A stretch of 64,000 bases of DNA, from positions 58,078 to 122,077 of the forward strand of contig CAZPQJ010000002.1 in NCBI GenBank assembly GCA_964588955.1, in the 5' to 3' direction. Shown here piece after piece: positions 4,047 to 45,124 of the stretch. Below the pieces are notes generated by a model. The model made no database searches, was not told the DNA's origin, and saw only the letters and a program-made list of their open reading frames with translations. Position numbers and translations under genes: made by a program. Within the stretch, counting starts at the first letter, position 1. Each line of letters begins with the position of its first letter. The DNA comes from an uncultured Gammaproteobacteria bacterium (GTDB lineage: Bacteria > Patescibacteriota > Patescibacteriia > UBA9934 > CAMTUG01).

Positions 4047-4078
4047 ACAACCCTCCGCGGGGTTGTTTTGTTTTTGCA
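4047..4078 (+). terminator. Intrinsic terminator (caaccc-tccgcg-gggttg followed by ttttgttttt).
   Basis: Perfect 6-bp GC-rich stem plus T-run. Member of the same family as 31-56. Confidence 0.5.
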
Positions 4079-4126
4079 TTGTGTGGCGTTTCCGAAGATG
4101 CTATTCTCAGAATAGAAGAGGTGCTC

Positions 4127-5508: not shown

Positions 5509-5540
5509 AAACCTCCCCTTCGCGGGGTTGTTTTGTTTGT
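5509..5540 (+). terminator. Intrinsic terminator (cccc-ttcgc-gggg then ttgttttgtttgtg).
   Basis: Same family. It shares the downstream gtgctaggat motif with the copy at 7510. Confidence 0.5.
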
Positions 5541-5585
5541 GCTAGGATTATTTCGTATGATTTTACGTGGAACAACTATCGAACA

Positions 5586-6252: not shown

Positions 6253-7100
6253 AAATTATCTCTCTGAATTGTTACTTCGGCAACGTTTTTGAGCCACTCA
6301 TGGACTTTCTCACCCACGAAGCTCCTACCACCGACGTTTTTTGTTTGCAGGAAATTGTTAGCAACCCCAAAGAAGACGCGCACTTTTCCGGCCGCCAAGG
6401 CCGAGCTAATTTGCTCCAAGAATTGGTGCGTCGCCTTCCTGGCTTCGACTATCATTTTGCTCCCATGCAATACGACTTCGATACCACCCCCGACTACCCT
6501 CAACAAACTACGCTCGGTGTCGTCATCTTTTTCAAAAAGACTCTACCTGTTTCTGAACGCGGAGATTTCATGATTTACAACAGTCTTAATAGTTATCACG
6601 GACAAAAAGACTGGGAGACGCTTGGCCACACCGCCGTCTATGTATGTGTCGATGGTACGACCCCGTTGACGATTGTCACCCTACACGGTAACTCCCAACC
6701 AGCAGATAAACGCGATAGCCCCAAACGCCTGGAACAATCACAAAAGATTCTCAACTTTTTGGCTCCGCGAGACGGAGAAAAAATCGTCATCGGCGACTTT
6801 AATCTGTACCCAGACACCGAAAGTATTCGTCTGTTCGAAAAGGCAGGATTCCGCAACCTCGTAACGGAACACGGCATTACCTCGACGCGCGGTTCTCACA
6901 TGCACGTCCTTTTTCCGGAATACGAGAATGGTCCATACGGCTTTCAAGAATTCGCCGACTACGCCTTCACTTCCCCAGGTATCAACGTGGACGCTTTCAC
7001 AGTACCCGATGTCCCTGTGAGCGATCATCTCCCAATAATCCTCGATTGTACATACGAAAAAACAAGAAAAGTCGATGACAACGTCGGTCCTTTTTGTTAA
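6249..7100 (+). CDS. Endonuclease/exonuclease/phosphatase (EEP) family protein.
   Basis: MKIISLNCYFG…CLQEI…IGDFNLYPDT…VSDHLPI are the conserved EEP motifs. There is a 4-nt overlap (ATGA) with the upstream gene. Confidence 0.75.
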   Translation: MKIISLNCYFGNVFEPLMDFLTHEAPTTDVFCLQEIVSNPKEDAHFSGRQGRANLLQELVRRLPGFDYHFAPMQYDFDTTPDYPQQTTLGVVIFFKKTLPVSERGDFMIYNSLNSYHGQKDWETLGHTAVYVCVDGTTPLTIVTLHGNSQPADKRDSPKRLEQSQKILNFLAPRDGEKIVIGDFNLYPDTESIRLFEKAGFRNLVTEHGITSTRGSHMHVLFPEYENGPYGFQEFADYAFTSPGINVDAFTVPDVPVSDHLPIILDCTYEKTRKVDDNVGPFC

Positions 7101-7509: not shown

Positions 7510-7540
7510 GCGCCCCCATCGCGGGGGCGTTTTGGTTGTG
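7510..7540 (+). terminator. Strong intrinsic terminator (cgccccc-atcgc-gggggcg then ttttggttgtg).
   Basis: 7-bp GC stem plus T tract. Confidence 0.6.
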
Positions 7541-7567
7541 CTAGGATGTGCGCAAACACAAAACCTT

Positions 7568-16534: not shown

Positions 16535-16774
16535 CGAAGACTCCGGTGGCGCAATGCGCCGGTGAAATGAACTCTTTTGCCGCTTTTCTAGCCTTTCCAG
16601 GCCTTTAGCGGACCAATAAAAATAGCACATTTTGGCGATTTTGTCAATGGTATTGGATGGGAGAGAAAGCAGGAGAAAACAGGATAAAGTTGGATAAAAT
16701 GGGAGAAGAATGCCATGAAGTTTTCTTTTTCTCCTATTTTCTCCAACTTTTTCTCTTCTCTCCCGAAACCGGTT

Positions 16775-18112: not shown

Positions 18113-18156
18113 AAAACCTACGGGGGGTTGCGCAAGCGACCCCCAAGGAGAATTCG

Positions 18157-19308
18157 ATGTTCAAGTTCTTCGCAACCATGACCAACGGGAAGCGGGCGCT
18201 GATCGCCGGGAGTCTGTTGACTCTCGGCGCACTCCTCCTCGCCTTCGCCCTTGGCGTGCTCGGGGCGGCCCCGGTGGCCGCCATCTACGCGGTGATCGCC
18301 TTCGCCATCAGCGCCTTCCTGTTCGCAACCATCGGCAACTGGAACGCCGAGTGGGGGGCACGGGCGAGCGCCACGGCCTGCATCTTCGGGGTGGTGTTCT
18401 CCATCGCCGCCTTCGGGATCGTCCTCTTCCACGGGGTCAACGAAGCCCAGCGGGAGGCGGATCTGAAGGTGGTCGACGACGCCACCCGCGCGGAGGTGTC
18501 CGAGAACGACGTCGGGGCGGCGCGCAAGCGTCTCCTCGGCGGCGACAACGCTGAAGTCACCCTCAAGACCGCGACCGACATCGCCCGAGCCGACAAGGCG
18601 CTCGCCCTGGCCACGGAGATCAACAACTCCGAGACCATGGACGAGAACGCCAAGAAGGTCCAGGAAGCCATCGACGCCCGCAACCTCGCCGACGCCGAAG
18701 CCGCGGCCAAGGGGTGGACCGGGATGGTGAAGGACTACTTCGCCACCAAGGGGCGGGAATACCAGCACCTCGGATGGCGAAGCAGCCACGCAGACACCGT
18801 CACCAAGGTGATCTACTGGTTCCCCACCCTCGTCTTCGTGGGTGTCGCCGGTCTGATGACCCTCTACGCCGCGGCCCAGTTCGGCATCAAGGGGGTCATC
18901 AAGGAGCCGCCGGTCGGAGCCCACTGGCTGCACTGGGTGAAGTTCTACACCGACAAGGTGCTCTTCGCCCCGTCCACCAAGGTGGCCTTGGGAGCGTTCG
19001 CGCTCCTGTGGTTCCCTCTCTGGTGGGCGGACATGCTCCTCGAGCCCTACGATCCGACCCCGCCGCACAGCGAGCAGGACGAACGGCACGAGACCTCGGC
19101 CGAGAAGGCGAGGGCGGCGCGGGAGAAGATTGCCGAGCGTCGTCAGACGACGCGTAGCAACAAGGACGCTGGCCAGCGCAAGCAGGCCAACGCCCACGAC
19201 AAGAAGATCGAGGGATCGGTCGAGTCCGCGACCATCCCCGCCGGGCGCTACGCGTTCGGCCGTGACGAGGACGGCAACGCCCACACCCTGGTCGTCGCCG
19301 ACAACTAG
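18157..19308 (+). CDS. Membrane protein with coiled-coil segments (GC-rich island gene 3).
   Basis: AAGGAG lies 6 nt upstream of the ATG, the only clear SD in the window. Two N-terminal TM helices. Charged C-terminal tail. Confidence 0.55.
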   Translation: MFKFFATMTNGKRALIAGSLLTLGALLLAFALGVLGAAPVAAIYAVIAFAISAFLFATIGNWNAEWGARASATACIFGVVFSIAAFGIVLFHGVNEAQREADLKVVDDATRAEVSENDVGAARKRLLGGDNAEVTLKTATDIARADKALALATEINNSETMDENAKKVQEAIDARNLADAEAAAKGWTGMVKDYFATKGREYQHLGWRSSHADTVTKVIYWFPTLVFVGVAGLMTLYAAAQFGIKGVIKEPPVGAHWLHWVKFYTDKVLFAPSTKVALGAFALLWFPLWWADMLLEPYDPTPPHSEQDERHETSAEKARAAREKIAERRQTTRSNKDAGQRKQANAHDKKIEGSVESATIPAGRYAFGRDEDGNAHTLVVADN

Positions 19309-19410: not shown

Positions 19411-19445
19411 ATTTTCTCCTTCTTTCTCTTTTCTCCTATTTTTTC

Positions 19446-20462
19446 TTACTTCATCTCCTTCTTAAACCAATCCACCCAATGAATATCTTTTGGGTCCACG
19501 CCGCCGAGCTCAGCCATTTTGGTAGTGATCAGGGCTCCGCGTTGCACCAGTTCAAATGCTTGTTGCAACGGCGTCTTTCCTGAAATAGTTAGCCGCAACG
19601 TTTTAGCCCCATTTTTCTTTACAACTGTTTCTGTCAGCCCATAGCGTTTTTGTACGCGGGGGTGATACAAATCCGACTCGATAAAAATAAACGTTAGTCC
19701 GTTGACTATCGCTTTGGGAAACGTCAATCCTTCCATCAAATGATGATTCATTTCTGGAATGGCAAATCGCACAGCGAAATGCTTAGCACTCTCGTTGAGT
19801 TGATTGGTAAAGACGTGCGCCGCGCCTTCCAGGTGTTCGCTGGAGATCATCACGCACCCACGTTGAAAAAGTTTTTTGGCAATACTTCCCGCCTCACGCT
19901 TCCAGGCAGACACACCACTTTGCAAATGTTTGGCGACCTCGGCAACTTCTTTGTCGCCTACCCTTACCGCGCCTATTGCCGCCAAAACCGCCAGCGGAGC
20001 CATAGCCATAAATCCTGTTCCGTACCGCGGTTGTGGAGCCAAATCTCCTGGATCAAACACGTAGGCCGGTCCCTTGTCGCGTCGCGCCCACTCGGCGAGC
20101 GGTCCGCCGTGCGTCAACACAAACATCTTCAATCCTTTTGCTTTGGCTTGTTTGTAGGCACCAAGCACTTCTTCCGTAGTTCCAGAAAAGCTGGAGAGGA
20201 TCACGAGCGACGATTTGGTCGCCGAAGCGGGCAAATGATACCCATTCACCACTTCAATCGGCACAGTCAAACGATCCGCTAAGGCCGATTGAATCACATG
20301 TACTCCCAGCGCCGAGCCCCCCATGGCCATCATCACTACACGATCAATCGACCGATAGCTTGCCGGTAACTTCATCCGCTTGGCCTCTCGATAGGCCAAC
20401 ACAAGTTGTTCATCCAATCTGCTCAACGTGTCAAAAAGCGTCTGCATAAGGTATTTGATCAT
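19446..20462 (-). CDS. Bifunctional phosphoglucose/phosphomannose isomerase (SIS-domain, archaeal-type PGI/PMI).
   Basis: Two SIS-like segments (…VVMMAMGGSALG…ILSSFSGTTEE…) and ~330 aa length. Confidence 0.75.
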   Translation of the reverse strand: MIKYLMQTLFDTLSRLDEQLVLAYREAKRMKLPASYRSIDRVVMMAMGGSALGVHVIQSALADRLTVPIEVVNGYHLPASATKSSLVILSSFSGTTEEVLGAYKQAKAKGLKMFVLTHGGPLAEWARRDKGPAYVFDPGDLAPQPRYGTGFMAMAPLAVLAAIGAVRVGDKEVAEVAKHLQSGVSAWKREAGSIAKKLFQRGCVMISSEHLEGAAHVFTNQLNESAKHFAVRFAIPEMNHHLMEGLTFPKAIVNGLTFIFIESDLYHPRVQKRYGLTETVVKKNGAKTLRLTISGKTPLQQAFELVQRGALITTKMAELGGVDPKDIHWVDWFKKEMK

Positions 20463-21546
20463 TAATCGCTTTGGTCACTTGAGCTCGGTCGGCGTTGCGG
20501 CCAACAAGCGTCGCTCCTACCAGTTTACCACCGCGCAAGAAATGCTGGGCAACACCGCCTTCTTTTTTCGATCCCACCACCCTCACCTCCTCTGCCGCCA
20601 AGCGGTTCGTATCCCCAACAAAAATAACTTCCAACCCGCGGCAGTTGGTGGCGTACGAACTCACCAAACGAAACGGTTCACGTGTTCCGCTCATTACTTT
20701 AGCCGCGTGACGTCCTTGCATTTGCGCGTTCATCCAGTTACCGCTCATTAAGTGCCGCCCGGCAATCACATCAAAGTACTCGGCCACATCTCCGGCCGCG
20801 TAGACATCGACTACGTTTGTTTCTAAATACTCGTTCGTTTTGATTCCTCCGTCGACGTCGATTCCTGCCGCTTTCGTGAATCCAACCTCCGGGGCAATCC
20901 CAATTCCTACCCCCACCAATCCTTCAAACACCTCCGGCTTGGCGTGCTTATGGACCTTAATGTGATCCGCTTGTGCTTTCTCAGCAATCAGATCTGAAGA
21001 GTCCGCGTCGAGTACGGCACTAAAAAAGTGTTCGCCGTGTAAATGCAGGTCGGCTTTGATCTTGCGGTCGGCAAAGATGTTAATGTACTCAAGCGCAATA
21101 AATCCTCCACCGATAATATCAGCGTGTTTAACCCCTTCACCAAGCAACTGTAGCAAGTGATCAGCATCGTCGAGAGTGCGGAAATAGGAGACGTTACGAT
21201 CATGCGCCTCTAGGGTTTTGACTTCCCCGCCGGTAGTAATTAGGAGCTTATCGTATTCGTATTCGCGACCATCAGACGCGGCGACAAACCGATTTTGCGT
21301 ATCAATCGATTCGGCCACCACCCCCGGTAACCAATCAATCTTCTGATCCGCGTACCACTCCGGCTTTTTCAAAAAACAGCGCTCACGTTCAATCTTTCCT
21401 TTTACGTAGTGCGGCAACAACACCCGGGAATACACCCGATGCTGTTCCTCGGAAAGCAATATAATCGACGCCTCGGCATCGATCTTGCGCAATTCTTCCG
21501 CCGCCGTGGTGCCGGCAATACCTCCTCCAATAATCAGGTAACGCAT
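20431..21546 (-). CDS. FAD-dependent pyridine nucleotide-disulfide oxidoreductase (NAD(P)H oxidase / ferredoxin-reductase-like).
   Basis: MRYLIIGGGIAGTTAAEEL (FAD GxGxxG) and a second Rossmann motif DIIGGGFIALE. Confidence 0.8.
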   Translation of the reverse strand: MRYLIIGGGIAGTTAAEELRKIDAEASIILLSEEQHRVYSRVLLPHYVKGKIERERCFLKKPEWYADQKIDWLPGVVAESIDTQNRFVAASDGREYEYDKLLITTGGEVKTLEAHDRNVSYFRTLDDADHLLQLLGEGVKHADIIGGGFIALEYINIFADRKIKADLHLHGEHFFSAVLDADSSDLIAEKAQADHIKVHKHAKPEVFEGLVGVGIGIAPEVGFTKAAGIDVDGGIKTNEYLETNVVDVYAAGDVAEYFDVIAGRHLMSGNWMNAQMQGRHAAKVMSGTREPFRLVSSYATNCRGLEVIFVGDTNRLAAEEVRVVGSKKEGGVAQHFLRGGKLVGATLVGRNADRAQVTKAINDQIPYADAF

Positions 21547-21560
21547 AGAATGAAGAAAAT

Positions 21561-21673
21561 CGAAATACTAAATCCGAAGTACCAAACACATTCAAAATCT
21601 CAAAGAAAAATTCACAAACTGTTTTTACCTTTTCCGATTAGGATTTTCCGATTGTTTCGGATTTAGTATTTCG
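21561..21673. repeat. Inverted-repeat intergenic element, copy A. An 18-bp perfect inverted repeat cgaaatactaaatccgaa / ttcggatttagtatttcg flanks ~75 bp.
   Basis: Read directly. A 21-nt core ctaaatccgaagtaccaaaca recurs reverse-complemented at 44118-44138. Confidence 0.6.
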
Positions 21674-21684
21674 TATTTCGTGTT

Positions 21685-21951
21685 TTATAAATCCGGAAAC
21701 AGTTGAACGCCTTTCTCGTCGGTAATAATAATAGCCAACGTTGGGCAAGACTGCGCCGCCATAATGATGTTCTCCTTTTCCTCTTCGCTTACCTCCACCA
21801 CCCGTTCATAGGTACGTTCGGTTGGCTCCGTACCATGATCGAACACAACAGCCTTGTTTTCGTCGTTCAACTGGAACGTTTCTGGAGCGATCGTTACGCA
21901 CGAAGCCGCCCCAATGCACAAGTCTGGATCCACTTTGATTGTCAATTTCAT
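21685..21951 (-). CDS. Ferredoxin (single [3Fe/4Fe-4S] cluster type).
   Basis: DPDLCIGAASCVTIAP…AAQSCPTLAI, with cysteine spacing of a small ferredoxin. Confidence 0.8.
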   Translation of the reverse strand: MKLTIKVDPDLCIGAASCVTIAPETFQLNDENKAVVFDHGTEPTERTYERVVEVSEEEKENIIMAAQSCPTLAIIITDEKGVQLFPDL

Positions 21952-25674: not shown

Positions 25675-25687
25675 GTGATGGGCACAA

Positions 25688-25724
25688 TAACAAAACAGCC
25701 GTGATTTTTCAACGGCTGTTTTGT
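25688..25724. terminator. Bidirectional terminator (aacaaaacagccgt-gatttttca-acggctgttttgtt).
   Basis: 14-bp perfect stem flanked by A and T runs. Confidence 0.6.
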
Positions 25725-25732
25725 TATTGTTA

Positions 25733-37682: not shown

Positions 37683-37935
37683 CTTTAGTACAATAATTTC
37701 TTTTCCGTTGCTAAAAGCGATTCGGTTCTATCAAAAGACGCTTTCGCCGGATCACGGTCCCCTTCGGATGCTCCACCCAGGAGGTTTTTGCCGATTTTAC
37801 CCGACCTGTTCTGAGTACGGGCACCAGGCAATCCAGACACACGGGGTAATAAAAGGCCTCGCCCTTAGTATTTGGAGGGTCTTGCGGTGCCACCCCTGGG
37901 CAAAAGGCGGTCTCGACCCTATCCCCAACAAATAA
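37675..37935 (+). CDS. yidD: Membrane protein insertion efficiency factor YidD.
   Basis: [15 protein letters not shown]…[15 protein letters not shown]…[15 protein letters not shown]. Confidence 0.85.
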
Positions 37936-37985
37936 CAAAACCGCCCTTGGTCTTCGGTGGCTCGGGCGGTTTTGGTTTGTTTTGG
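37934..37985. terminator. Bidirectional terminator (aaaaccgccc-ttggtcttcggtggctc-gggcggtttt).
   Basis: 9-bp GC stem with flanking A and T runs. No yidC follows yidD. Confidence 0.55.
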
Positions 37986-43454: not shown

Positions 43455-44021
43455 CTAATTCTGAATCCGCTCCACGTATTCGCCCGTTTCGGTGTTTACG
43501 GCGATGGTTTCCCCTTCTTTTATGAAGATCGGCACGTGTACGGTAAGACCGTTGTCGACCACCACTTCTTTAGTGACGTTGCCGCCGGCAGTGTCTCCTT
43601 TAATGGCCATCGGCGAGGAAACGACTTTATATTGGATCTTTTTTGGCACTTCAATGGCAATGGGGTTTTCTCCATGAGTCATGATCATTACCGGCAACCC
43701 CTCTTTCAAGTATTTGACGTCGTCGCCGATCATCTCTGGCTGCAAGGTCATTTGTTCGTAGGAAACGTTGTCCATGAAGGTGTGGCCTGTTTGGTCGCCG
43801 TACAAATACTGCATGTTTTTGTAGGAGACTTCCTCGAAAGTGAGGGTTTCGGCAGATTTGAACGAGTTTTCTTGAATCTTACCGGTGCGGATGTTGCGGA
43901 TGCGCGTGCGCACGAACGAACTCCCCTTTCCTGGGGAGACACGTTGAAACTCAACCACAATCCAGAGATCGTTGTTGAGGTTAATGACGGTGCCCTTTTT
44001 GATGTCGTTTGGTGATGGCAT
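43455..44021 (-). CDS. efp: Translation elongation factor P.
   Basis: …FQRVSPGKGSSFVRTRIRNIRTGK…, three OB-domain architecture, 188 aa. Contains the conserved modifiable Lys in the PGKG loop. Confidence 0.95.
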   Translation of the reverse strand: MPSPNDIKKGTVINLNNDLWIVVEFQRVSPGKGSSFVRTRIRNIRTGKIQENSFKSAETLTFEEVSYKNMQYLYGDQTGHTFMDNVSYEQMTLQPEMIGDDVKYLKEGLPVMIMTHGENPIAIEVPKKIQYKVVSSPMAIKGDTAGGNVTKEVVVDNGLTVHVPIFIKEGETIAVNTETGEYVERIQN

Positions 44022-44030
44022 AGGTTGAAT

Positions 44031-44150
44031 AAATACGAAATTCGAATGTCGAAATCCGAAATAAGCGGAAAATTCGAATGGAAAATGTTTAAAGATTTTC
44101 TTTTTCCTTTTCGAATTTGTTTGGTACTTCGGATTTAGGGTTTCGGATTT
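44031..44150. repeat. Inverted-repeat intergenic element, copy B (related to 21561-21673).
   Basis: Contains tgtttggtacttcggatttag (44118-44138), the exact reverse complement of the 21-nt core at 21568-21588. Also aaatccgaa / ttcggattt arms. Overlaps the epmA stop. Confidence 0.55.
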
Positions 44151-45124
44151 TTAAATAGTAGTCTTGCCGGGAATGCGAGGACGTCTTCAATCGACTTCGC
44201 TCCCGTGAGAAGCATGAGCAAGCGATCGACCCCCAGGGCGTTTCCGAAGGTCGGTTGGCGCAGGGATGGTAGCCCGGCAAGGAGGTCTTCGTCAATGGGG
44301 AACCGGGTTTTGCCCAGGCGAGACCGTTCGGCTGTTTCTTCCTCGAACCTGCGGCGCTGTTCGGCTGCGTCCGTAAGTTCGGTAAAGGCATTACAGAGCT
44401 CTGTACCTTGGATATAAAGCTCAAAACGCTCCGCGTACTTTCCATCAGGGGTGAGGCACGACAAGGCGGCTTGTTCACGAGGAAAGTCGTAAACAAAGGC
44501 TCCTGTGGTTGGGAGTTTGGTTTCAATTTGGGTCAAAAAGATCCGATGAAAGAGGTCAGACCATGTGTCTGTTGGGTCTGTTGTTAGGCCTAAGCGTTCA
44601 CATCTGGCACGGAGTTCCTCGGCTGTGGCCCCGTCGAGTTCGACGCCGGAGGCAGCTTTGAAAGCAGTAGGAATGTGGACGCGCGCAAAGGGAAATGTCA
44701 GCTTTGACTCTGGAAATTGCTTGGCACAATGTTTGATCAAGGCCTCAGTTTCATCCATCCCAAGGTTGTAATCAGCCCCCTGTTGGTACCACTCGATCAT
44801 GGTGAACTCTGGGTTGTGTTGCTTTGGGGCGTCGTCGACGAAGAAGTCACTATTACGAAAGACCTTCGTGAGGGTGAAGATCTTTTGTAATCCTGCACCA
44901 AGGAGCTTTTTCATGGAGAACTCGGGACTAGTAATGAGTCCGCCCGGATAGGTCGAACCATCCGCTCCGACGAGTGTTGTTTCGAATGGTGTGAGTGCCG
45001 GCGACATGTCTGGTGAAGCAACGAGGATAGGAGTTTCCACTTCCAGGTATCCGCGCGAGACGAAAAAGCCACGGATTGCCGCGTTTAGGGTGTTGCGATC
45101 TTCAAACAGTTTTTGTAAGTCCAT
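44135..45124 (-). CDS. epmA: EF-P--(R)-beta-lysine ligase EpmA (PoxA/GenX, truncated class II LysRS paralog).
   Basis: Class II aaRS catalytic core without an anticodon-binding domain, ~329 aa. Immediately upstream of efp. Confidence 0.8.
   Translation of the reverse strand: MDLQKLFEDRNTLNAAIRGFFVSRGYLEVETPILVASPDMSPALTPFETTLVGADGSTYPGGLITSPEFSMKKLLGAGLQKIFTLTKVFRNSDFFVDDAPKQHNPEFTMIEWYQQGADYNLGMDETEALIKHCAKQFPESKLTFPFARVHIPTAFKAASGVELDGATAEELRARCERLGLTTDPTDTWSDLFHRIFLTQIETKLPTTGAFVYDFPREQAALSCLTPDGKYAERFELYIQGTELCNAFTELTDAAEQRRRFEEETAERSRLGKTRFPIDEDLLAGLPSLRQPTFGNALGVDRLLMLLTGAKSIEDVLAFPARLLFKNPKP

Follow-up and report, generated by a model that had tools for sequence, protein, structure and literature searches.

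Two intergenic gaps in the stretch of DNA analysed here (64,000 nucleotides of contig CAZPQJ010000002.1, assembly GCA_964588955.1; hereafter the window) are, on balance, probably copies of one interspersed, non-coding palindromic repeat resembling REPINs and MITEs (miniature inverted-repeat transposable elements). One lies between a ferredoxin gene (fdx) and a FAD-dependent oxidoreductase gene (site 1), the other between epmA and efp (site 2), in the genome of an organism that the relatives of its EpmA and oxidoreductase place near Candidatus Uhrbacteria/Parcubacteria (Patescibacteria). That the elements behave like interspersed selfish DNA and not like a regulator shared by the two operons is the best-supported account of what was observed, namely their membership in a dispersed family, their anatomy and distribution, their presence or absence at orthologous junctions, the constraint on their arms and the lack of covariation between these arms. 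Mobility, a mobilising factor and any effect on expression are what we infer from these observations.

Two copies of one element

The two sites are linked most directly by a 21-mer, CTAAATCCGAAGTACCAAACA, which the initial annotation had reported as shared in inverted orientation and which indeed occurs exactly twice in the window, at 21568-21588 on the plus strand and at 44118-44138 on the minus strand; allowing up to three mismatches gave no other match in the window and none in 100 shuffled sequences. The perfect 18-nt inverted repeat described for site 1 (21561-21578 / 21656-21673) was also recovered and lengthens to 24 nt at 92% (21555-21578 / 21656-21679) and to 44 nt at 70%. The similarity between the sites is real but had been understated: 21556-21624 and the reverse complement of 44082-44150 are 74% identical over 69 nt, and an end-to-end alignment of the complete gaps shows a single element in opposite orientation. 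In addition, AAATCCGAA occurs seven times in the window, compared with 1.05 expected occurrences, and five of the seven are found in the two gaps; the remaining two, at 1664 and 31590, are both located in coding sequence and look like chance matches.

The window elements are about 121 to 138 nt long and consist of two arms of 44 to 69 nt, which are 70 to 92% complementary and match the arm profile of the family described below. Each arm is an array with a period of seven nucleotides, AAATyCG AAATyCG AA(GCA/TAT)CG AAATyCG AAACAAA, followed by decaying A-phased heptads. What had been taken for an AT-rich core of about 75 bp at site 1 is not unrelated filler; it consists of the decayed inner heptads of both arms. 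At site 2, End A reads AAATCCG AAACCCT AAATCCG AAGTACC AAACAAA TTCGAAA ..., and End B reads AAATACG AAATTCG AATGTCG AAATCCG AAATAAG ...; since the two series differ, the element has two distinguishable ends. At site 1, End A includes the 21-mer together with the left half, and End B the right half, of the perfect inverted repeat, and it is because both of these arms carry a CTAAAT variant of the CGAAAT heptad that the repeat is perfect over 18 bp. Along the transcript, the order is fdx, End B, End A, oxidoreductase at site 1 and epmA, End A, End B, efp at site 2. No third copy was found in the 64-kb window by searching with the arm profile.

The AAGTACC heptad behind the 21-mer is present in End A of both window copies, and orthologues carry AAATCCG and AAACTCG in its place. 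The exact 21-mer would thus most simply be explained by copying between copies and arms within the genome, either through gene conversion or through renewal from one subfamily. It had no match in the GTDB representative genomes, a collection without the source genome, and two matches in JGI metagenomes, one of which (L003) is located inside an open reading frame (ORF) and is probably due to chance. The other (L002:1380-1475) is intergenic on an unrelated metagenome contig, where the exact 21-mer plus two flanking matching bases lies 18 nt past the hemB stop codon and is fused to a GATGTGG-type heptamer hairpin upstream of a cbiX-like gene. As only about 0.2 chance matches are expected in the JGI collection (based on a rough guess of its size), this is possibly a real fragment of the family. 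The two operons share no regulator, in agreement with the initial annotation; their likeness comes from the repeat family, and the 21-mer is shared through this family and not through the function of the Fe-S/redox and EF-P operons.

A repeat family in distant phyla

The GTDB representative genomes were searched with a degenerate pattern shared by all three End B arms then known, which matched at least 120 stretches, part of them trivially, because the pattern is periodic and also matches plain (CGAAATy)4 arrays. The GTDB matches listed include 48 complete palindromic elements, and the loci fetched from GTDB, from viral contigs and from the Patescibacteria copies together hold 56, with a median length of about 150 nt; the size of family members ranges from 100 to 180 bases. 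Their arms of about 55 to 65 bp are inverted around a variable apex, which follows the G+C content of the host, and share the ordered sequence (A)AATyCGAAATyCGAA[GCA/TAT]CGAAATyCGAAACAAATyCrAA..ACCrAAA..CAAAwk.yCAAAAC. An arm profile built from other phyla matches three of the four window arms with E values of 2.4e-9 to 2.5e-4, and the fourth with 0.026.

At least eight phyla, as well as viral contigs, contain complete elements. Hosts include Desulfobacterota (Syntrophobacteria/Syntrophobacterales, Desulfobacterales), Planctomycetota (Gemmataceae, Pirellulales, Planctomycetaceae, Phycisphaerales, Sedimentisphaerales, Tepidisphaerales, Thermoguttaceae), Verrucomicrobiota (Chthoniobacterales, Akkermansiaceae, Verrucomicrobiae), the Acidobacteriota group (Aminicenantes and Terriglobia), Omnitrophota, Fibrobacteres (Fibrobacterota) and Patescibacteria-type organisms (Parcubacteria, Staskawiczbacteria, Saccharibacteria, Peribacteraceae). 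Among Pseudomonadota, elements were found in an Alcaligenaceae metagenome-assembled genome (MAG) and in the cultured isolate Wenzhouxiangella sp. 15190, and the latter rules out a MAG artefact. The family is present in 14 IMG/VR contigs, and several genomes among the matches listed have two or three loci each. A blastn search of the PLSDB plasmids gave no match to the canonical element, to which low-complexity filtering perhaps contributed. No Rfam 15 family reached the gathering threshold for the window copies or for six canonical loci, which gave only sub-threshold matches to generic long hairpins (miRNA precursors); in the whole window only two tRNAs scored above threshold. Searches of the literature by DNA strings, encoded peptide and keywords retrieved no description of the family, although subscription journals or repeat databases could still hold one.

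Plain (AAATyCG)4-5 arrays also exist. For the four heptamer units compared, viral contigs contain 10, 0, 11 and 2 stretches, and as a control heptamer array is as frequent there as (AAATCCG)4, we make no claim for plain arrays. Arrays of this kind, about 30 to 33 nt long, were seen in frame inside housekeeping genes of different phyla in GTDB genomes (L116:4892-4923, L117:3319-3350, L107:6384-6412, L115:2106-2136). They are found in IleRS (...PAWA[KSEIRNPKSEI]TKGSDIFDVWFESG...), in PheT [NPKSEIRNPK], in a mutase-like protein [IRNSKFEIRNS] and in a protein that we guess from its sequence to be glycogen-debranching-like, and they resemble inserted copies of the outer arm module. A long array at L014:5230-5560 drifts from heptamer to heptamer (AATTCCT, AATTCTG, ATTCCGT, ATTTCGT/ATTTCGC), a pattern also noted at L021:3834-3980, where a hairpin contains a (CATCGGA)n array directly adjoining a (TTTCGGA)n array; heptamer arrays would accordingly seem to evolve by slippage and mutation.

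Occupancy of orthologous junctions

In GCA_947084965.1, whose proteins are 69% (EpmA), 68% (oxidoreductase), 77% (EF-P) and 83% (ferredoxin) identical to those of the window, homologous elements are present in both orthologous gaps (epmA-efp, locus L004, and fdx-FAD) and in the same orientation as in the window. The fdx-FAD copy (L142) is 123 nt long and has CGAAACAATCGGAAA in common with End B of site 1. Two further elements are located in the lemA-htpX and htpX-clpC gaps of the lemA-htpX-clpC operon, and copy density amounts to four in the 42 kb read of this genome and to two in the 64-kb window.

The organism represented by SRR32573209 is closer to that of the window (75-80% amino acid identity) than is GCA_947084965.1, yet its fdx/FAD junction (L143) is empty and reads TAA-TCGT-ATG. 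It contains an unrelated palindromic family built from GGTAATT/AATTACC heptamers at epmA-efp, nifS-nifU and nifU-fdx (L006:4795-4891, L143:1905-1991, L143:2629-2741; z -4.3 to -6.0), each copy of which takes up the whole of an operon gap between stop and start codons; the window gaps at nifS-nifU and nifU-fdx measure 5 and 12 nt. Heptamer-armed palindromes thus appear, from these sequences, to occur in lineage-specific flavours. In a fourth relative (L007) there is no element at epmA-efp, and the gap is 3 nt long. Junction occupancy therefore varies between relatives, which fits the expectation for inserted DNA.

Two other palindromes of about 130 nt, both nested, were noted in the rnpA-dnaA region of GCA_947084965.1 (L004:17827-17955 and 18117-18244), the presumed origin; with arms GGAAAATATCGAAAC... 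and TTTTCG..GGGC they stand outside the CGAAAT family.

Position within operons and gene context

The elements are closely associated with gene ends. For 37 of the 56 complete elements, an ORF of at least 120 amino acids ends no more than 40 nt outside or 45 nt inside the element boundary; seven elements have such ORF ends on both sides, and many stop codons lie 0 to 15 nt from the boundary. Copies begin 0 to 8 nt past a stop codon or include it, and they finish 5 to 16 nt ahead of a start codon without Shine-Dalgarno sequence. The orientation of GCA-type and TAT-type arms with respect to the upstream gene is unbiased (13:8), and the window copies are opposite to each other. The genes flanking the elements are unrelated across phyla and have no common function.

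Both window elements follow this pattern (Table 1): they begin at or before the upstream stop codon and finish 8 nt short of a downstream ATG without Shine-Dalgarno sequence. Site 1 is framed by the ferredoxin stop codon (21685-21687) and the oxidoreductase start codon (21544-21546) in an operon of the order VIT1-nifS-nifU-fdx-oxidoreductase-PGI, and site 2 is part of the gene string rpsF-ssb-rpsR-epmA-efp-ftsK, with the efp start codon at 44019-44021. The 21-mer had been assigned to the epmA-efp gap, but the epmA stop codon (44135-44137) lies within the arm. The last EpmA residues, KNPKP, are consequently written by the element: the protein (P0009) ends in ...LLFKNPKP* (window 44135-44155) and its counterpart in GCA_947084965.1 in ...ELFVNPKS*, and other EpmA homologues terminate 3 to 6 residues past the conserved LF. 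The window DNA was also assembled from SRR16481186.

Table 1. Positions of the two palindromic elements, their arms and the adjoining genes in the window
Feature	Position	Strand	Remarks
Site-1 element, whole	21547..21684	.	occupies the entire gap from ferredoxin stop to FAD-oxidoreductase start
Site-1 End A arm (GCA/GTA-type)	21555..21605	+	nhmmer arm profile E=0.026; adjoins FAD-oxidoreductase start
Site-1 End B arm	21629..21685	-	nhmmer E=3.4e-6; adjoins ferredoxin stop codon
Site-2 element, whole	44022..44158	.	inverted relative to site 1
Site-2 End B arm (TGT/TAT-type)	44030..44085	+	nhmmer E=2.4e-9; 8 nt from efp start codon
Site-2 End A arm	44095..44150	-	nhmmer E=2.5e-4; holds 21-mer 44118-44138, epmA stop and KNPKP codons
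FAD/NAD(P)-dependent oxidoreductase gene (Pyr_redox_2)	20431..21546	-	downstream of site 1
4Fe-4S ferredoxin gene	21685..21951	-	upstream of site 1; Fer4_15/13 found in orthologue
efp (elongation factor P)	43455..44021	-	downstream of site 2
epmA/genX (EF-P lysine aminoacylase)	44135..45124	-	upstream of site 2

Sequence scans detected neither a sigma-70-like promoter on the transcribed strand of either window element nor, within these elements, any intrinsic terminator (a G+C-rich stem with a subsequent U run) on the minus strand. Elsewhere in the window, CCCCTTCGCGGGG together with TTGTTTTGTTT recurs behind plus-strand genes (32-65, 2196-2229, 4050-4083, 5515-5548, 7514-7547), and further G+C-rich stems with T runs are located at 25684-25730 and 37925-37985. 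All of these look like ordinary intrinsic terminators, and with such terminators available in the window the AT-rich palindromes are not needed for termination.

Constraint on the arms and predicted folding

The six Patescibacteria copies are 63 to 80% identical overall and 71 to 94% identical in End B, and among them orthologous copies (71%) are no closer to each other than paralogous ones. Flanking genes in the same two genomes, that of the window and GCA_947084965.1, show 65 to 73% DNA identity, with third codon positions at 42 to 51%. On two related phage contigs (L129:647-794 and L132:11006-11196) the element occupies one and the same junction, preceded by a stop codon and followed by the Shine-Dalgarno sequence belonging to the gene downstream; here the flanks are about 77% identical and the arms 94 to 96%, and the apex of about 100 nt is unrelated. 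The arms are thus far better conserved than synonymous sites, which indicates that their sequence is either constrained or continually homogenised.

This conservation does not extend to pairing. When the left arm is compared with the reverse-complemented right arm, identity is 0.683 within and 0.694 between elements (56 elements, z -1.6), and in the variable outer columns it is 0.33 within elements versus 0.40 for random pairs (z -3.1), because one arm tends to CGAAGCACG and the other to CGAATATCG. When register shifts are allowed, the excess of complementarity is marginal (z 1.9; 16 of 300 shuffles). Compensatory covariation between arms was not found among the 56 elements, and pairing as such is not under selection.

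Folding of both window copies, as the initial annotation had proposed, predicts long hairpins of -36.4 and -27.8 kcal/mol (z -2.7 and -2.6), and most other copies fold similarly well or better (z -2.4 to -6). The orthologous copy in L004, however, has kept its arms although its predicted fold is no better than that of shuffled sequences (z -0.4). The proposal of a conserved regulatory or RNA structural element was not borne out, considering the lack of covariation, the unbiased orientation, the absence of the element from orthologous gaps and the lack of a promoter- or terminator-like site. The hairpin formed in the mRNA is probably incidental, a by-product of the inverted arrangement of the arms.

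Likeness to known repeats

In architecture and genomic habit the elements are closest to REPINs and REP (repetitive extragenic palindromic) sequences (PMC3116915, PMC3733652). They share with these the two inverted arms around a spacer, predicted hairpins of about 100 to 150 nt, numerous scattered copies that lie mainly downstream of genes, where the neighbouring ORFs are co-directional or convergent, and occasionally inside genes, a long vertical persistence, and the lack of a transposase within the unit. A REP unit, however, is an imperfect palindrome of 20 to 40 bp with an unpaired GTAG or CGTC tag (PMC3733652). Here the arms are ordered 7-nt arrays of 55 to 65 bp which are not palindromic in themselves, and neither window element has GTAG or CGTC at its arm ends. 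No RAYT transposase gene was seen in the loci read, which comprise 64 kb and short stretches of relatives. Moreover, a REP family is usually confined to one lineage, whereas the arms described here are nearly identical over at least eight phyla and phage contigs.

Bacterial MITEs, such as Correia, Nezha and the RPEs of Rickettsia, offer the second obvious comparison. Like them, the elements are small, AT-rich and non-coding, have terminal inverted repeats and a variable interior, occur in multiple copies whose presence varies between relatives, and can provide host genes with stop codons or in-frame residues. Unlike them, they show no target-site duplication, and about 165 loci (the stretches fetched from the respective genomes) yielded no insertion sequence with matching ends that could be their parent; their inverted repeats are also exceptionally long and internally periodic. 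The earlier suggestion of a MITE-like repeat therefore stands as regards dispersed multi-copy palindromes, their presence and absence, the empty TAA-TCGT-ATG site and the copies elsewhere, but not as regards a consistent target-site duplication or a transposase that is enclosed or recurs in the neighbourhood. The abutment of copies reading TA|AAT...ATT|TA to TAA stop codons had raised the possibility of a TA duplication of the IS630/mariner type. We rejected it because only about a third of arms are preceded by T and the comparison of empty and filled sites shows no duplication.

Heptanucleotide repeats form a third group. The STRR (short tandemly repeated repetitive) sequences are heptanucleotide repeats of heterocystous cyanobacteria. 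TAACTGA repeats are found in Beggiatoaceae, Cyanobacteria and Bacteroidetes, and their spread across phyla is unexplained (PMC4679880); GGGAATC / GGGGAyT repeats occur in Xanthomonas and Nostoc (PMC4692102). Such families resemble the present one in their 7-nt units, of which there are about four, in their intergenic location between co-oriented ORFs a few bases from stop or start codons, sometimes in frame, and in their patchy distribution across phyla with no known transfer mechanism. They are, however, direct arrays of one unit in which inverted sets are exceptional (1 of 170 in BOGUAY), whereas the palindrome here is made of two opposed arrays of several heptads in fixed order, and its unit sequence, CGAAATy, is a different one. 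An array of a single unit varying by slippage, as in STRR sequences, is not what we found, because heptad order and the inverted second arm are conserved across phyla.

The operators of omega repressors, ribbon-helix-helix (RHH) proteins of pSM19035-type plasmids, are likewise made up of adjoining 7-bp units in both direct and inverted orientation, but their sequence is WATCACW and they belong to plasmid promoters, as opposed to hundreds of chromosomal gene junctions; no association with RHH genes was seen near family elements in the loci fetched. We know of no fit, in sequence or in arrangement, to the parS, DnaA-box, IHF or H-NS consensus.

Origin of the elements and alternative explanations

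If the elements are indeed REPIN/MITE-like repeats, the family would be old and spreading between lineages, with copies occupying small, insertion-tolerant spaces immediately behind a stop codon, or overlapping it, and within a few bases of the start codon that follows, and the two insertions in this Patescibacteria lineage would have been inherited or repeatedly renewed. The arm may be the recognition site of a putative mobilising or binding factor, in analogy to transposon ends or REPIN arms, and the arms would then be the functional part, serving the element's own propagation. As the hairpin may fold the insertion away and keep stop and start codons close together, an insertion might be harmless inside operons, a possible reason for its tolerance there.

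Several observations weigh against this reading. An autonomous copy was not seen, as no pair of arms 0.3 to 5 kb apart encloses a gene in the fetched loci, and around the elements in about 130 loci no protein family turned up repeatedly. No constant target-site duplication was detected in the flanks of 20 elements or in the comparison of empty and filled sites, and only about 30 to 39% of arms have a T before the terminal AAAT. The copy count covers the 64 kb over which the source genome was readable. Furthermore, both window insertions are kept in the same orientation in a relative with flanking proteins (EpmA, oxidoreductase) that are only 67 to 69% identical, which implies a very long residence or a site preference, unusual for purely selfish DNA. 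The other hairpin at the epmA-efp junction of the closer relative could mean that some hairpin is useful there.

The latter points also speak for a selected, cis-acting RNA hairpin which sets the relative expression of the flanking genes, through cleavage by RNase III, a shielding effect against 3' exonucleases on the upstream mRNA, the stalling of ribosomes that terminate beside the stop codon, as reported for E. coli REPs, or re-initiation favoured by the proximity of stop and start codons. We regard this as unlikely, despite the good predicted folds of most copies including those of the window, the tight placement between stop and start codons, the filled state of both window sites in a distant relative and the second hairpin family in a closer one. 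There is precedent for such effects: hairpins of REPs and bacterial interspersed mosaic elements (BIMEs) stabilise upstream mRNA, and Liang, Rudd and Deutscher reportedly found in 2015 that E. coli REPs no more than 15 nt from the stop codon reduce translation. However, compensatory covariation was not found, and arms within an element are no more complementary than arms of different elements; the L004 orthologue has lost its fold and retained its arm sequence; empty orthologous junctions in relatives make the element dispensable; and host genes are unrelated across phyla, no Rfam family applies and both orientations occur. Structure alone would also leave the near-identical arm sequence across phyla unexplained. 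This conservation without covariation, the strict 7-nt periodicity with distinct heptads in fixed order, the maintained asymmetry of the arms (GCA versus TAT heptad) and their retention where the hairpin is lost would be accommodated if the heptamers were iterons bound cooperatively by one protein per 7 nt, forming a platform at the DNA or single-strand level with a role in nucleoid organisation, regulation or defence. Models would be the omega-type RHH repressors on WATCACW heptads and cold-shock proteins on T-rich heptamers; CspB binds heptamer repeats with one protein per heptamer, according to the summary given in PMC4679880. Yet there is no candidate protein and no recurrent adjoining gene at about 130 loci, the distribution is patchy even among close relatives, unlike that of a conserved host function, and the flanking genes have no common function, so that we consider such a platform decidedly improbable.

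Still less credible, and largely refuted by the alignments, is the view that heptanucleotide microsatellites grew locally by slippage, followed by inverted duplication, their similarity reflecting convergence or low complexity. Heptamer simple repeats are over-represented in bacteria, near stop codons and with about four units (PMC4692102, PMC4679880), viral contigs hold plain arrays of other heptamers as often as (AAATCCG)4, and arrays drifting from heptamer to heptamer do exist (L014, L021). But the same ordered series of heptads, ...CGAAGCACGAAATyCGAAACAAATyC..ATGACCAAAAC, recurs across phyla, the six Patescibacteria copies align end to end, and not one exact 21-mer is expected by chance. 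A bolder extension of the REPIN/MITE-like reading, for which we see a small but real chance, is that the elements represent an unnamed, horizontally spreading class whose arms, ordered heptamer arrays of roughly 60 bp, are read by a putative factor active across distant phyla and phages, which would move without classical transposase or target duplication and whose outer (AAATyCG)4-5 module would also land in frame in essential genes, adding KSEIRNP-type peptides. The phyla concerned would be Patescibacteria, Planctomycetota and Desulfobacterota, together with their phages.

Near-identical non-coding sequence over many phyla is rare and usually signals a shared machine or a very promiscuous mobile element; rRNA, tRNA and a few riboswitches are the exceptions. 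The family thus offers a handle on how the tiny, streamlined genomes of Patescibacteria bear insertions of 100 to 140 nt in essential operons, on the origin and spread of the over-represented and unexplained heptanucleotide repeats, and on the gene flow that links phyla with one another and with their phages in sediments and groundwater. In practice, the arm profile can be used in the annotation of MAGs, as the elements extend or truncate ORFs (here the C-terminus of EpmA) and may break assemblies.

Other observations

A divergent intergenic region of the window (16661-16755) contains another long hairpin, whose arms are made of repeats of about 10 nt, GGAGAAAA / TTTTCTCC (28 nt, 82 to 86% complementary), and direct repeats related to TTTTCTCC are located at 19419-19457 (region 19411-19460). 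This hairpin is unrelated to the CGAAAT family. The viral contig L129 carries, at 6733-6807, a group II intron domain that scores above the Rfam gathering threshold (53.6 bits).

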